From the IMG/VR virus record IMGVR_UViG_2547132269_000010: a stretch of 4,574 bases of DNA; one strand, given 5' to 3'. The stretch comes from a virus (Duplodnaviria; Heunggongvirae; Uroviricota; Caudoviricetes). The notes beneath the pieces are model-generated. The model had not been told where the DNA came from. It ran no database searches and was given only the letters and a program-made list of their open reading frames with translations. Positions 301 to 4,574 of the stretch are shown one piece after another (the stretch's first letter is position 1; each line of letters begins with the position of its first letter). Position numbers and translations under genes: made by a program.

Positions 301-330
301 TTGACATTTGTGATTCATGTTATCCATAGT
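301..330 (+). promoter_or_regulatory. candidate sigma70 promoter for the zinc-ribbon/MTase operon
   Basis: Perfect -35 hexamer TTGACA at 301-306; only weak -10 candidates 17-18 bp downstream (CATAGT at 325-330); about 40 bp upstream of the 373 start codon. A second TTGACA at 181-186 has no properly spaced -10. Confidence 0.25.
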
Positions 331-372
331 GAGTAAATCATTTTCATCTGATGTTATAAAAGAGAGGTACCA

Positions 373-648
373 ATGGTGACATGTAATTGTTGTGGTAAGG
401 CTCTGAACAAAGGTATTTGGACTCTGGATGGCAAATATAAAAGTTGTCCATTATGTTCATCTACGCATGGCGTTGAGCACATTTTCCGGCGCTATCCCGA
501 GGACTTTGGAACCACTGATGCCAGGATTACGCCGACGAACCCTGATGGTGCTCAAAGCTATTGTATTGACTGTCGGGGATTAGATAAAGGACAATCATCA
601 CTGGTAGATCTCACCAAACAGAGATTATGTAATACAGTGCGAATTTAA
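373..648 (+). CDS. small Cys-rich zinc-ribbon protein (91 aa) with Mu Com-like N-terminal finger; putative regulator or accessory factor of the downstream methyltransferase
   Basis: ATG at 373 preceded by Shine-Dalgarno AGAGAGG (361-367, 5-nt spacing). N-terminus has CxxC (C4,C7) then GKALNK, then CPLC (C25,C28); same spacing and the C-x-K-x-L-x-K signature as I recall for phage Mu Com (CKNCNKLLFK...CPRC). Further CxxC at C64/C67. Stop TAA (646-648) overlaps the ATG of the next gene (TAATG). Function inferred, not demonstrated. Confidence 0.6.
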   Translation: MVTCNCCGKALNKGIWTLDGKYKSCPLCSSTHGVEHIFRRYPEDFGTTDARITPTNPDGAQSYCIDCRGLDKGQSSLVDLTKQRLCNTVRI

Positions 649-1328
649 TGAATTTAAATCAGTTAGATGCAGTTGAATGGCTAAAAACACTCCCTTCTGG
701 GAGTGTTGATCTATTTGTAACAGATCCTCCATATGAATCGCTTGAAAAACATAGAAAAATAGGCACAACAACTAGGCTGAAAGTAAGTAAGTCTTCTAGT
801 AATGAATGGTTTGCTATCTTTCCAAACAGTAGATTTGGAGAGCTTTTAACCGAAATGTATCGTGTCCTCAAAAAGAATCGTCATCTATATATTTTCTGTG
901 ATCAAGAAACTATGTTCCATCTGAAGCCGATTGCCGAAGATGCTGGGTTTAAGTTTTGGAAACCAATTGTCTGGAACAAGATGGCTATCGGAATGGGATA
1001 TCATTACCGTGCCAAGTACGAATTTGTTTTGTTTTTTGAGAAAGGAAAGAGGAAGCTCAACAACTTAGGTATACCTGACATCTTGGAAGTGAAGAGGGTG
1101 ATGAGAGGGTATCCAACCGAAAAACCAGTTGATCTTATTAAGATTTTGATTGAGCAAAGTACAGTTCAAGGTGAGTCTGTATGTGATCCTTTTTTTGGTT
1201 CTGGCTCAACTTTAGTTGCAGCTTTCGAGTTAGGACGTTCTTTCTTAGGGACAGATATTTCGCCATCAGCTCATGCTTACTTTAAGCAGCGGTTATCTGA
1301 CAGCCAGTTAATACTTGACACGCTGTAA
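648..1328 (+). CDS. DNA methyltransferase, beta-class N6-adenine/N4-cytosine family (226 aa), probably N6-adenine-specific
   Basis: Motif IV DPPY near the N-terminus (VTDPPYES, codons at 723-734) and motif I near the C-terminus (DPFFGSGST, about 1185-1211), preceded by the conserved YPTEKP box: the beta-class order IV then I. No Shine-Dalgarno; start overlaps the upstream stop, implying translational coupling. Stop TAA at 1326-1328. Confidence 0.9.
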   Translation: MNLNQLDAVEWLKTLPSGSVDLFVTDPPYESLEKHRKIGTTTRLKVSKSSSNEWFAIFPNSRFGELLTEMYRVLKKNRHLYIFCDQETMFHLKPIAEDAGFKFWKPIVWNKMAIGMGYHYRAKYEFVLFFEKGKRKLNNLGIPDILEVKRVMRGYPTEKPVDLIKILIEQSTVQGESVCDPFFGSGSTLVAAFELGRSFLGTDISPSAHAYFKQRLSDSQLILDTL

Positions 1329-1596: not shown

Positions 1597-1785
1597 TCAT
1601 GGCAGTTTTTGTTGACCACTACAGTTCTTGGTAACAGGGATAATGTAGCGAAACTGCCAGATTTTACTTCCGCTGGATTTGATGAGTAGCTCAAGGCCAT
1701 CACCATCATAGAGAACATAGTCCGCTTCTTTGGGGTTGGCTGATTCGATTTCCTTAACGGATAGAGGTTTGGTTTGTCTTGCCAT
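1597..1785 (-). pseudogene. truncated/decayed P4 (IntA)-type tyrosine integrase, N-terminal arm-binding region only
   Basis: Minus-strand ORF from ATG 1783-1785 gives MARQTKPLSVKEIESANPKEADYVLYDGDGLELLIKSSGSKIWQFRY, closely matching the conserved N-terminus of enterobacterial P4-family integrases as I recall them (MARKTKPL...DGDGL.LLIKSSGSK.WQFRY). The frame stops after 62 codons at 1597-1599. An overlapping shifted frame reads ...FRFFPVSI..., possibly residual frameshifted homology. No catalytic domain follows on the minus strand. Confidence 0.6.
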
Positions 1786-1910: not shown

Positions 1911-1942
1911 AAAAAAGCCCGCGGAGCTTACGCCGTGCGGGC
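1911..1942 (-). terminator. putative rho-independent terminator (minus strand) between crr and the integrase region
   Basis: GC-rich hairpin GCCCGC(GG) at 1917-1924 pairing with (CC)GTGCGGGC at 1933-1942, flanked by A6 at 1911-1916 on the plus strand (a U6 tail after the hairpin on the minus-strand transcript). On the plus strand it is followed only by TCTT. Confidence 0.35.
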
Positions 1943-2146
1943 TCTTAGGACTTCATCGGATGACTCTGGTAATCACCGATGGAGAATTTTGGTGGGCTGG
2001 CGGAGTTTGAATAAATATTGTATTGCTTTGATTTTTAATGATTTTGTTTAATTCATTTTTTGTGCGTATACCTAATCGTATACCAATGGCTGGAAGTTAA
2101 TGTGAAATGAAAGCGCATTTTTACTTGGATTGATGCTATATCGTAC

Positions 2147-2270
2147 AGGAAAAAAATTTTTTTCGAAAGAACTGTTCACACTGTTCACCTTTCTGTTTTC
2201 TCCTTTTATTTCAGAGTGATAGGTGGTGAATAATGGGTGAAGGGTGAACATTCGATTCTTCACCTCCGGC
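2147..2270. repeat. crr-like cis-replication repeat unit 1 (iteron array)
   Basis: Begins with A7T7 (2150-2163). Contains TGTTCACA (2173-2180), TGTTCACC (2182-2189), GGTGAACA (2243-2250) and variants GGTGAATA, GGTGAAGG, TCTTCACC (2257-2264). Roughly 80-85% identical by eye to unit 2, offset 181 bp. Confidence 0.7.
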
Positions 2271-2276
2271 ATTCTG

Positions 2277-2326
2277 CCGGTGTGACTTGTGCAGGGGATT
2301 AATTTCCCGTGCTGAAATCACACCGG
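2277..2326. repeat. inverted repeat in the spacer between the two crr units
   Basis: CCGGTGTGA (2277-2285) and TCACACCGG (2318-2326) are perfect 9-bp inverted arms around a 32-nt spacer that contains a nested near-palindrome (GGGATTAATTTCCC). Confidence 0.4.
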
Positions 2327-2449
2327 AAGAAAAAAAGTTTTTTTTGATTTGATTGTTCACACTGTTCACCTTTCGTTTTTCTCTTTTAATTTCAGTGTGA
2401 TAACGGGTGAATATACGGTGAAGGGTGAACAGTGGATTGTTCACCTTCG
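2327..2449. repeat. crr-like cis-replication repeat unit 2 (iteron array)
   Basis: Begins with A7-G-T8 (2330-2345). Contains TGTTCACA (2354-2361), TGTTCACC (2363-2370 and 2438-2445), GGTGAACA (2424-2431) and variants. Direct repeat of unit 1. Confidence 0.7.
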
Positions 2450-2461
2450 GGGAATTCAGGG

Positions 2462-2488
2462 ATAAAAAAAGACCGGCAGATGCCGGTC
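2462..2488 (-). terminator. rho-independent terminator of the primase-helicase gene
   Basis: Perfect 7-bp GC-rich stem GACCGGC (2471-2477) / GCCGGTC (2482-2488) with 4-nt loop, followed on the minus-strand transcript by a U7 run (plus-strand A7 at 2464-2470); starts 16 nt after the TGA stop at 2505-2507. Confidence 0.65.
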
Positions 2489-2504
2489 AGATGAGTCATG
2501 ATGG

Positions 2505-4574
2505 TCAGGTTGTTGCAGGGTCGTCACATTTTGGCAGCCAGTCGCCGTAGCTTTCCTCTTTCAGCGTCAGGTTGGTCTGTATCCCCTGTTTGGTATGGCG
2601 CTTCTCGTAATTCAGTCCGTATTCCTTCAGCATCACCGGCAGCCCCAGCCCGAACATTTTCAGACTGAGTACATTCCGGTAGCCGTTTGCCTCCATGTAG
2701 GCCAGATAGGCGTGATAGAGGTATTTACGGTAATTACGCGGGATGATACTGGCGTTCCCCATATACATGCCGCTGGTCTGCGGCAGGGTTTCCAGATAGC
2801 CGATAAAATCAAACGTCGGGTCGGCATCCCGTTTGATGTTCAGTGCCTCGTCTGAGTTCTGCTGGGACTGAAGCAGTGACCGGGCGAGCATCGGGTCGCT
2901 GAACTTCTGCATCAGGTGACGCACGATGACCGCCAGCTCGCGGGTGATTTTGTCCTTAAGCTGCGGGTCGCGCTCCTGCGGGGCTATCTGTTCCGGGAAG
3001 TGAATAATCACCCGCCGGCGTGACACGCCGCCGCTGCGGTCGGTGAAGCGCATCGGGTTATTGTTCACGGCCAGAATCACCGCCGGGATATGCGTGGAGT
3101 ACGCATCCCGGTATTTCGGGTCAACGGACACCGCGTCGCCGCCGGTGATGGCCTTGAGTCCGGCACCGTCGCCGCTCCATTTTTCCTGGTCCGGCAGGCG
3201 TATCAGTGAGAAGCCAGTTAACGCGGCACGTTCACGCGGGGATTCCAGCGTCTCGATGGTGGCCGACGTGGCGTTATCCTCCCCGGCCAGCAGGGTGGCT
3301 ATTTCGGCCATGATACTTTTGCCGCTGCCGCCGGGACCGGTCACCTCCAGAAAGAGCTGCCAGTCGTAGCGGTTTGCCAGCACCATAAACAGTGCGGCCA
3401 GAATCACGTCGCGTTTTTCCGCACGACCACCGGCAGCACGGTCAAGCCAGCGCCAGAACGCGGGAGCGTGGGTTTCCAGCGTTTCACCGTCCACCGGCGG
3501 GGTGAAATCCACATCACACAGGGTACGCATCCAGTGTGACGGACTGTGCGGGTGGAACGTACCGTTCTGCGTGTCGAGCACGCCGTTACGAAAGCCAATC
3601 AGGCGGCGGGAGGGGGCTTCCTGCTGCGGAATAATCAGCTTCAGGGTGTCCACCACGGAGGCCACCTTCCCGGAGGAGAACGGCGCGCGCAGCCGCTGAA
3701 ACAGCCCGGCCACATCCCGGGCAAAGTCCTGTGGTGGCAGCACCTTCCAGACACCATTTTCATAGCGGGACAGAAGCTGGCCGTTGGCATCGACCGCGAG
3801 CGCCTCGCCGTAATGCTCATAGATACGCATGGCCTTTTCGCTGGTACTCATGGCGGAAAACTCCGCTTCGCTCATGGTGTCGAACGGGCTTTCAGCCGGT
3901 GGCCGGATTGCATCATAAATGGCCTTACGGGTGGCCTCCCCGCCGTACTGCGTGAAGGCATCATTCCAGTCACCGAAGACCGGCGGCAGGGCAACAACAC
4001 CTTCACACGCATCTGCGGCTGCGGCGGCTTTTTTCTGGCCGTCACCGCTGAGGTCACGGTCAGCGGCAAGGACAATCTGACAGGCGGGGGGCTTCTGCCG
4101 GGCAAGGCTGGCCAGAGAAAGGAGGTTCACGGAAGAAAGCGCCACCATCACCGTTTCACCGGTCAGGTGATGCACGGTAAGTGCGGTCGCGTATCCCTCC
4201 GCTATCCACAGACGTTTTCCGGCCTGATTCTGTCCTTCAAGGATGTGACAGGTGCCCCTGACCTGTCCGCCTTTCAGGGTGCGCTTACGGCCGTCAGCAC
4301 TGATTAACTGAAGGTTAACCAGTTCGCCGCTGTCGTCATACAGTGGCACCACAAGGTCACCGGCGCGCCAGCTCACGCCACCGGCTCTGTGTGTGCCGGT
4401 CAGCATCCGGCATTCCCGGCCGGGAAAGCCCTTGCGGGTCAGGTAGGCGTTACCGGTTCCGGGACGGGGTTTCGCCATCAGGGTTTGTGCCAGTGCGGCG
4501 GCGTTCTTCCGGGCGGCTTCTGTTTCAGCAACGGCGGCGGCCGTCACTGCCGGGTCAGCCGGTGGCAGGCTGGC
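2505..4574 (-). CDS. alpha: P4 alpha-type bifunctional primase-helicase (replication protein), 5'-partial; N-terminus beyond the window end
   Basis: Minus-strand frame is open from the window edge (no stop between 4574 and the first start-like codon, GTG at 4545-4547) to TGA at 2505-2507. Translation has TOPRIM-type primase motifs (WIAEGYATA with Glu codon at 4197-4199; AADRDLSGDG), a Walker A P-loop GPGGSGKS (3315-3338) and a C-terminal domain. It is followed by TGTTCACC iteron repeats, the known binding sites of the P4 alpha C-terminal domain. Confidence 0.9.
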   Translation of the reverse strand, partial: ASLPPADPAVTAAAVAETEAARKNAAALAQTLMAKPRPGTGNAYLTRKGFPGRECRMLTGTHRAGGVSWRAGDLVVPLYDDSGELVNLQLISADGRKRTLKGGQVRGTCHILEGQNQAGKRLWIAEGYATALTVHHLTGETVMVALSSVNLLSLASLARQKPPACQIVLAADRDLSGDGQKKAAAAADACEGVVALPPVFGDWNDAFTQYGGEATRKAIYDAIRPPAESPFDTMSEAEFSAMSTSEKAMRIYEHYGEALAVDANGQLLSRYENGVWKVLPPQDFARDVAGLFQRLRAPFSSGKVASVVDTLKLIIPQQEAPSRRLIGFRNGVLDTQNGTFHPHSPSHWMRTLCDVDFTPPVDGETLETHAPAFWRWLDRAAGGRAEKRDVILAALFMVLANRYDWQLFLEVTGPGGSGKSIMAEIATLLAGEDNATSATIETLESPRERAALTGFSLIRLPDQEKWSGDGAGLKAITGGDAVSVDPKYRDAYSTHIPAVILAVNNNPMRFTDRSGGVSRRRVIIHFPEQIAPQERDPQLKDKITRELAVIVRHLMQKFSDPMLARSLLQSQQNSDEALNIKRDADPTFDFIGYLETLPQTSGMYMGNASIIPRNYRKYLYHAYLAYMEANGYRNVLSLKMFGLGLPVMLKEYGLNYEKRHTKQGIQTNLTLKEESYGDWLPKCDDPATT

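Follow-up and report, generated by a model that had tools for sequence, protein, structure and literature searches.

A covarying mRNA hairpin within the coding region of a DNA methyltransferase gene that directly follows a small zinc-protein gene

The two-gene module and its P4-type satellite

The window, by which we mean the whole stretch of 4,574 nucleotides analyzed here, carries a low-G + C segment between two IS remnants. This segment is a two-gene module that consists of a gene for a Cys-rich zinc protein of 91 amino acids (373–648, plus strand, with its TAA stop codon at 646–648) and a gene for a beta-class N6/N4 DNA methyltransferase (MTase) of 226 amino acids with a DPPY motif (648–1328, plus strand; PF01555, 5.5e-36; PADLOC MTase_II). 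The small open reading frame (ORF) is preceded by the Shine-Dalgarno (SD) sequence AGAGAGG (361–367, plus strand), in place of which its relatives have AAGGAG at the same spacing, and the MTase has the same amino-acid sequence as proteins of Escherichia albertii. The right half of the window (approximately 2150–4574) is 97.6% identical to satellite phage P4 and comprises the crr region, with two direct repeats of 123 nt (2147–2269 and 2328–2450; 81% identical, spacing 181), and the alpha gene for a primase-helicase of 680 amino acids (2505–4547, minus strand). The host element is a P4-type satellite in E. albertii. The module is flanked on the left by an IS-related remnant (1–158) with IS3-like and IS200/IS605-associated matches and on the right by an IS911/IS3-like end (1518–1627). 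The latter abuts, and caused the truncation of, a P4-type integrase gene, of which only the N-terminal 62 codons for the Arm-DNA-binding domain are left (1597–1785, minus strand). Given its position between IS remnants, the MTase module was apparently introduced by IS activity, and the satellite is probably immobilized. A GC-rich inverted repeat (GCCCGC...GCGGGC) lies beside the integrase start and is overlapped by a sub-threshold Rfam match to the IsrM sRNA (1911–1967, minus strand; E 4.6e-4, 23.9 bits versus a gathering score of 376); the match is probably a terminator or an att-region hairpin rather than an sRNA.

The two genes overlap in the sequence TAATG (646–650, plus strand), in which A648 is common to the TAA (646–648) and the ATG (648–650). 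The initial annotation had reported this shared nucleotide as well as the lack of an SD for the MTase gene, and both observations hold; no SD precedes the overlap, and no anti-SD complementarity was found between −20 and −2 of the MTase start (best duplex energy 0). It had also placed the start codon within AATTTA repeats. AATTTAA does occur twice (642–648 and 651–657), but it is a product of AT-rich codons, and close relatives retain it only in part. In relatives, the junction remains tight, as TAATG, ATGA, GTGA, or gaps of at most 12 nt. The clade of the window has a TAATG or ATGA overlap with an anti-SD duplex energy of 0 to −0.5, and in many marine relatives the MTase gene is preceded by a good GAGG SD, the TAGAGGT-type SD spanning the stop codon of the small ORF. 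The overlap, the missing SD, and the conserved junction together make termination-reinitiation of the trp type (UGAUG/UAAUG) a reasonable route for MTase translation, which would be specific to the SD-less enterobacterial clade.

A sigma-70-like promoter candidate for the two-gene operon, TTGACA-18-CATAGT with 10 of 12 matches, is located at 301–330 (plus strand), and relatives have a conserved TTGACT approximately 95 nt upstream of the small ORF. In enterobacterial relatives (L003–L015), the region from approximately −100 to −20 of the small ORF contains a TTGACT −35-like box and the element GTAAAT(C/A)ATT(T/C)TTATC before a strong AAGGAG SD; this element may be an operator for autoregulation. 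The upstream region of the window is unlike that of these relatives and has TTGACA at 301–306. Inside the small ORF, a weak promoter-like site, TTGACT-18-GACAAT (566–595, plus strand), is present in only part of the enterobacterial clade and is probably incidental, arising from I-D-C and G-Q-S codons. Since this weak, clade-limited codon by-product was the sole candidate and no conserved internal promoter for the MTase gene was found, expression of the MTase generally relies on transcription that reads through from the operon promoter.

Close homologues of the small protein (67–80% identity) always had the MTase gene directly downstream with an overlap of 1 or 4 nt, and were encoded in islands of Enterobacter, Citrobacter, Klebsiella, and Erwinia beside a resolvase and a DUF6538 integrase. 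More distant pairs were found on Col-type plasmids of 4.9 kb (GTGA overlap), on Salinivibrio megaplasmids (6-nt gap), and as cargo of a TniQ/Csy (Tn7-like) element; a metagenome scan yielded approximately 50 additional marine loci, and a scan of genome contigs for the module yielded one locus. Complete E. coli genomes and the records of phages and plasmids contained few or no close copies of the two-gene module. In Vibrio nigripulchritudo (L019/L020, 2501–3475), the two genes converge without a single base between them, so that transcription from the two sides must collide there, and in this rpe-dam region the MTase gene extends into the end of dam.

The small protein has eight conserved Cys and His residues (C4, C7, C25, C28, H36, C64, C67, and C86) and further conserved basic or polar residues (K23, R51, Q61, S62, and R68), which suggests two zinc sites and a nucleic-acid-binding surface. 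It had no match in Pfam (E ≤ 1), NCBIfam, or PADLOC, a weak match to phrog_7682, a family of unknown function, and no match in a PDB sequence search. An AlphaFold (AF2) model based on 60 sequences had a pLDDT of 94.8, and a Foldseek search with this model gave no significant fold match in PDB or BFVD. A profile search for the domain returned 197 representative clusters, mostly unnamed or annotated as "hypothetical", and the literature searched contained no description of the small protein. We thus assign it to an undescribed and unannotated domain family with two predicted zinc sites. This family is tightly linked to DNA MTases on plasmids, islands, Tn7-like elements, and P4-type satellites. 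Where the domain is not fused, it is encoded beside N6/N4 MTases in tandem, convergent, or MTase-first order, and a clade of 79–86 amino acids comes after a complete Type II pair of PADLOC REase_II (DUF6996/6997/7226) and MTase. Fused forms also exist, in which the domain is joined to HNH nucleases, a PLD nuclease, DndB/DGQHR, DUF3553 (Tudor-like), and DUF6339.

We rejected a miniature HNH nuclease as the identity of the small protein; its CxxC..H..P..G..N..CxxC order looks HNH-like by eye, but hhalign against HNH gave a probability of 1.9%. The HNH domains to which the domain itself is fused elsewhere are genuine. Neither Pfam, NCBIfam, and PADLOC nor the HNH comparison and Foldseek supported a recognizable endonuclease, no HTH match of the Xre-type, C-protein-like controller kind was detected, and no REase gene accompanies the pair in the clade of the window. 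Because of the lack of a detectable HNH relation, the fusion partners, and the place after a complete restriction-modification (R-M) pair, the small protein is more likely an accessory DNA or RNA binder, such as a controller or a reader, than a miniature restriction enzyme.

A conserved hairpin within the methyltransferase gene

A stem-loop in the sense strand of the MTase gene (686–707, plus strand), AACACTCCC-TTCT-GGGAGTGTT, is formed by arms at 686–694 and 699–707 and a 4-nt loop at 695–698. The initial annotation had described a perfect 7-bp GC-rich stem at 688–705; the perfect stem-loop is present, but the stem is longer, extending to 9 bp. Its folding energy is −15.6 kcal/mol (z −6.4), none of 200 shuffles folded as well, and it is the only perfect inverted repeat of at least 9 nt with a real loop in the 4.6-kb window. 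A cmscan search of 1–2500 (E ≤ 1) gave no Rfam match at 600–760, and we found no description of the hairpin in the literature searched. The hairpin begins 38 nt past the A of the MTase ATG, with its core at +39 to +60, and spans codons 13–20 (K-T-L-P-S-G-S-V) in the N-terminal part of the MTase just before the DPPY motif. Across tandem loci its distance from the start is fixed (+36 to +63) and the stem stabilities range from −15 to −20 kcal/mol; the stem is lengthened to 11–12 bp in other clades.

In an RNAalifold consensus fold of 39 loci from −110 to +130, the hairpin was the sole conserved structure, and no conserved pairing involved the MTase start region. A long-range pairing of 602–611 with 708–716, which appears in the minimum free energy fold of the window itself, was not conserved in this consensus. 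The MTase start codon is not sequestered by the hairpin. Two further candidate roles were discarded. Most clades lack a slippery heptamer upstream of the stem that a −1 frameshift stimulator would act on, and the SD-like GGGAG in the 3' arm has no suitably spaced start codon for an internal start and is absent in other clades.

We examined the conservation of the hairpin in a gap-free alignment of 39 distinct tandem loci from the MTase ATG to the DPPY motif, in which helix columns 36–47 pair with columns 52–63 and the core corresponds to 686–694 and 699–707 of the window. Paired cells amounted to 87.8%, compared with 32–44% after the 3' partner was slid by 1–3 columns. The helix contained 54 double-sided changes, a number reached by none of 500 shuffles, and its covariation score was 0.342 as against 0.147 in shuffles. 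Three pairs exhibited 3–5 pair types each among the 39 loci, namely 42–57 (AU 23, GC 13, GU 2), 45–54 (CG 19, UA 9, UG 3, AU 2, GC 2), and 46–53 (GC 17, CG 15, UA 4), and there were at least 10 different fully paired stem variants. The loop sequence is not conserved and varies freely. Compensation is synonymous in some cases, such as Thr ACA/ACG with Ser AGT/AGC. Residues 16 and 18 covary with pairing kept, as P..G (CC/GG), A..A (GC/GC), S..E (UC/GA), and D..S (GA/UC). Codon choice is also biased in the stem: Ser19 is encoded by AGY in 39 of 39 loci, compared with 31% of the other serines of these genes, and Leu15 by CTN in 36 of 39, compared with 49% elsewhere in these genes. From the aligned sequences, we consider that the hairpin is not a product of chance and has evidently been selected as an RNA structure on the sense strand.

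Conserved amino acids fix four of the nine core pairs, and the partial self-complementarity of the codons (ACN CTN ... AGY GTN) for the conserved T-L...S-V peptide could in principle have produced the palindrome without any function. This is very improbable in view of the codon bias at Ser19 and Leu15 and the compensatory and amino-acid covariation. Moreover, orthologues that have the T/S-L-x-x-x-S-V/I peptide and no tandem small gene are unpaired (median 5 of 9 pairs, with at least 8 of 9 in one of 50).

The mismatches indicate which strand folds. Non-Watson-Crick core cells comprised 16 G·U against 2 A·C, and because of this excess the sense mRNA can be regarded as the folding strand; the asymmetry speaks against both a double-stranded DNA site and an antisense RNA. 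These data bear on a role at the DNA level, in which a dimeric DNA-binding protein, for instance the small zinc protein, would use the palindrome as an operator or roadblock site, or the palindrome would form a cruciform or single-stranded DNA hairpin. Half-sites of 9–12 bp with a 4-bp spacer do resemble an operator, and the fusion of the small-protein domain to DNA nucleases elsewhere suggests DNA binding. However, the symmetry is held while the sequence shifts at many positions among the fully paired variants, the G·U-type over A·C-type asymmetry would not be favored by a double-stranded DNA site, and the repeat is absent in convergent loci, so that we regard a DNA-level role as quite improbable.

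The occurrence of the hairpin follows the gene arrangement. We compared 41 distinct tandem loci, in which a homologous small zinc-protein gene lies directly before an orthologous MTase gene, with a non-tandem set that includes convergent loci with a small gene (L019, L074, and L075) and orphan MTases with their own SD. At least eight of the nine core pairs were present in 38 of the 41 tandem sequences versus one of the 50 MTase orthologues without a tandem partner (Fisher p 6.5e-21, a value that ignores shared ancestry and compares sets gathered with different seed queries). Similarly, 57 viral contigs that encode orthologous MTases (52–73% identity) without a small zinc ORF had a median of five of nine core pairs, and the hairpin was present in all three viral contigs with a tandem small ORF. 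The orphan MTase genes of Aeromonas and Edwardsiella phage-plasmids have their own SD and no hairpin, and the three distinct convergent loci of V. nigripulchritudo lack the hairpin despite having the small gene. On these sequence comparisons, the hairpin is evidently linked to the tandem order of the two genes rather than to the peptide of the MTase, and we take it to be an undescribed coding-embedded RNA element specific to this operon architecture.

One viral contig (L160) has AACGCTGCC-GGAC-GCCAGCGTT at MTase codons 13–20, with eight of nine pairs, and is the sole such orthologue without a detected small ORF. The small gene could have been lost recently in this contig, or could have been missed by the search pattern.

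Possible roles of the hairpin

The hairpin is probably a new regulatory element that sets the amounts of both proteins of the operon. As to how it does so, we favor, with a rough probability of 0.35, an operon-internal attenuator or 3'-end stabilizer that tunes the ratio of the small protein to the MTase. In this model, the hairpin at 686–707 would be a cis-acting structure in the sense mRNA of the overlapping operon and would not gate initiation. It would either terminate transcription weakly, as an intrinsic terminator, or obstruct 3'-to-5' exonucleases, and is placed as near the end of the small gene as possible without disturbing termination and reinitiation at TAATG. The outcome would be a surplus of short stable transcripts encoding only the small protein, with less MTase made from the full-length mRNA, on which, in the SD-less clade, the MTase would be translated mainly by ribosomes that had just terminated at the TAA.

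We favor the attenuator or stabilizer because the MTase depends on read-through, because the stem lies just beyond the junction, and because the hairpin occurs only where the small gene is adjacent without intergenic space. A ribosome terminating at the TAA or initiating at the ATG reaches only approximately +15, so that the stem stays folded. As the +36 to +63 position lies outside the footprint of such a ribosome, an element acting on the RNA end would fit better than a block of initiation. A terminator scan flagged 686–707 together with GATCTATTTG. A d'Aubenton-Carafa-type score had a median of −10 and exceeded 0 in 4 of 39 loci, lying just below the threshold in most of them; strong termination is therefore unlikely. 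Further points speak against the attenuator or stabilizer. The U-richness past the stem is mostly forced by the D-L-[FLI]-[VI]-T codons and is similar in hairpin-less orthologues, which weighs against a terminator; ribosomes translating the MTase would melt the stem; and transcripts encoding the small protein alone would be risky if that protein were toxic.

Our confidence in the other functional readings decreases in the order of a translational throttle, a protein-binding site on the RNA, an RNase III-type site, and the DNA operator discussed above. As a throttle, the stem would pause the first elongating ribosome approximately 7–8 codons into the MTase gene with its trailing edge on TAATG, so that MTase initiation, and possibly also termination at the small ORF, could go no faster than the hairpin is unwound; the MTase level would stay low and buffered against changes in upstream translation. 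The fixed +36 to +63 position in all tandem loci, which by our estimate is roughly one ribosome leading-edge length from the start, the stem stabilities, and the restriction of the hairpin to loci where two cistrons share a junction are consistent with such a pause. However, ribosomes quickly unwind stems of such size, and structure beyond approximately +35 only modestly affects expression in E. coli. A stem over the ribosome-binding site would be a simpler way to reduce translation, and the same hairpin is found in loci with and without an SD. We therefore consider a throttle unlikely, though it stands first in the order given above.

The stem-loop might also be bound by the small zinc protein, in a Com-like manner, or by the MTase, which would regulate MTase translation or the fate of the mRNA. 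The small protein is of a nucleic-acid-binding type, with its two putative zinc sites, conserved basic and polar residues, and a ribbon spacing as in Mu Com, and the hairpin is confined to loci that encode it. Nevertheless, even where the small proteins are closely related, the loop and the three central pairs of the stem are free to vary, the hairpin leaves the start codon unoccluded, and the three convergent loci retain the small protein and not the hairpin. The small protein has no Com family match, and the DNA nucleases fused to its domain suggest that it binds DNA and not RNA. No result of the present analysis points to RNA binding by the small protein, and we regard the hairpin as a doubtful protein-binding site. 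Endonucleolytic processing, for example by RNase III, would separate the cistrons by a cut in the 9–12-bp tetraloop stem and destabilize the MTase part. The stems of 11–12 bp in most clades are near a minimal RNase III substrate, and differential expression of the cistrons would match the arrangement-specific conservation, but the stem is shorter than typical sites and has no evident conserved sequence determinants, which makes processing improbable.

Returning to the favored attenuator or stabilizer, covariation rules out the functional silence described for the PvuII system (see below), but does not choose among the mechanisms. More speculatively, the zinc protein and the MTase could form a self-contained mobile two-gene module of an undescribed kind with an epigenetic or defence function. 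The zinc protein might then be a methylation-sensing controller or a non-nuclease effector, and the hairpin a dedicated device for the reader-to-writer ratio or the RNA target of the protein itself; we put this forward as a tentative picture.

The hairpin shows clearly how a protein can be constrained by an RNA structure, as it drove coordinated amino-acid substitutions in the N-terminal part of the MTase. The overlapping cistrons, whether toxin/antidote-like or regulator/enzyme, offer a directly testable model of how different levels are obtained from one promoter, and unequal expression from one promoter is a long-standing question for R-M-type modules. In addition, the present analysis brings an unannotated zinc-domain family of approximately 200 representative clusters to attention.

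Comparison with known systems

The arrangement resembles Mu com-mom, to which the initial annotation had likened it: in both, the start of a DNA-modification gene is overlapped by the gene for a small zinc protein and has an mRNA stem-loop nearby. The mom start region of Mu is itself part of the inhibitory structure, and Com binds beside that structure. Here, in contrast, the start is free, with the stem located 38 nt into the coding region, the loop lacks sequence conservation, and the downstream enzyme is an S-adenosylmethionine-dependent MTase, not Mom. The small protein is outside the Com family: Pfam gave no Com match (E ≤ 1), and hhalign against Mu Com gave a probability of 16.8% over 28 columns of a generic CxxC...CPxC ribbon. 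The first CxxC-17-CxxC ribbon of the small protein has the same spacing as in Mu Com. The hairpin is kept where the MTase gene has a good SD and is therefore neither tied to the absence of an SD nor a substitute for one. Together with the uncovered start codon and the absence of the hairpin from convergent loci, these differences mean that the suggested Com-mom-like mechanism was not borne out.

Among R-M systems, the MTase component of a Type II system is present (PF01555 and PADLOC MTase_II, as given above), whereas a partner endonuclease was not recognized. The R-then-M operons of Eco29kI and EcoRI likewise have a partner gene that overlaps the downstream MTase gene, and the ratio of their products must be set; such operons have internal MTase promoters and antisense promoters, and the review describes no intragenic hairpin (PMC3113576; PMC3874152). 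The present operon shares the overlap of an upstream partner gene with the MTase gene in one operon but differs in having no conserved internal promoter and in that the upstream gene encodes the 91-amino-acid zinc protein without a nuclease signature. In PvuII, up to approximately 20 nt of the small regulator gene are shared with the next gene, and hairpins predicted near the junction would occlude the ribosome-binding site; when tested, neither the overlap nor these hairpins affected regulation (PMC2997769). The overlap of a small gene with the next gene and the hairpin near the junction are thus common to the PvuII C-protein/REase pair and to our module. Unlike in PvuII, the hairpin here is downstream of the start and has strong covariation, and the small protein is a zinc module rather than an HTH C protein. 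Also unlike C-protein-controlled R-M systems, the downstream gene encodes the MTase, and this clade has no REase.

The hairpin shares with intrinsic terminators a G + C-rich stem-loop, of 9–12 bp and −15 to −20 kcal/mol. Stem-loops within operons, such as the malE-malF REP, that of the puf operon, and the internal terminator of rpsU-dnaG-rpoD, give more of the upstream than of the downstream product, which is also what we propose for the present hairpin. As in these operons, a stable stem-loop lies past the first cistron of the zinc protein-MTase operon. However, whereas those elements are intercistronic, the present one lies inside the downstream coding sequence and has shaped its amino-acid sequence.
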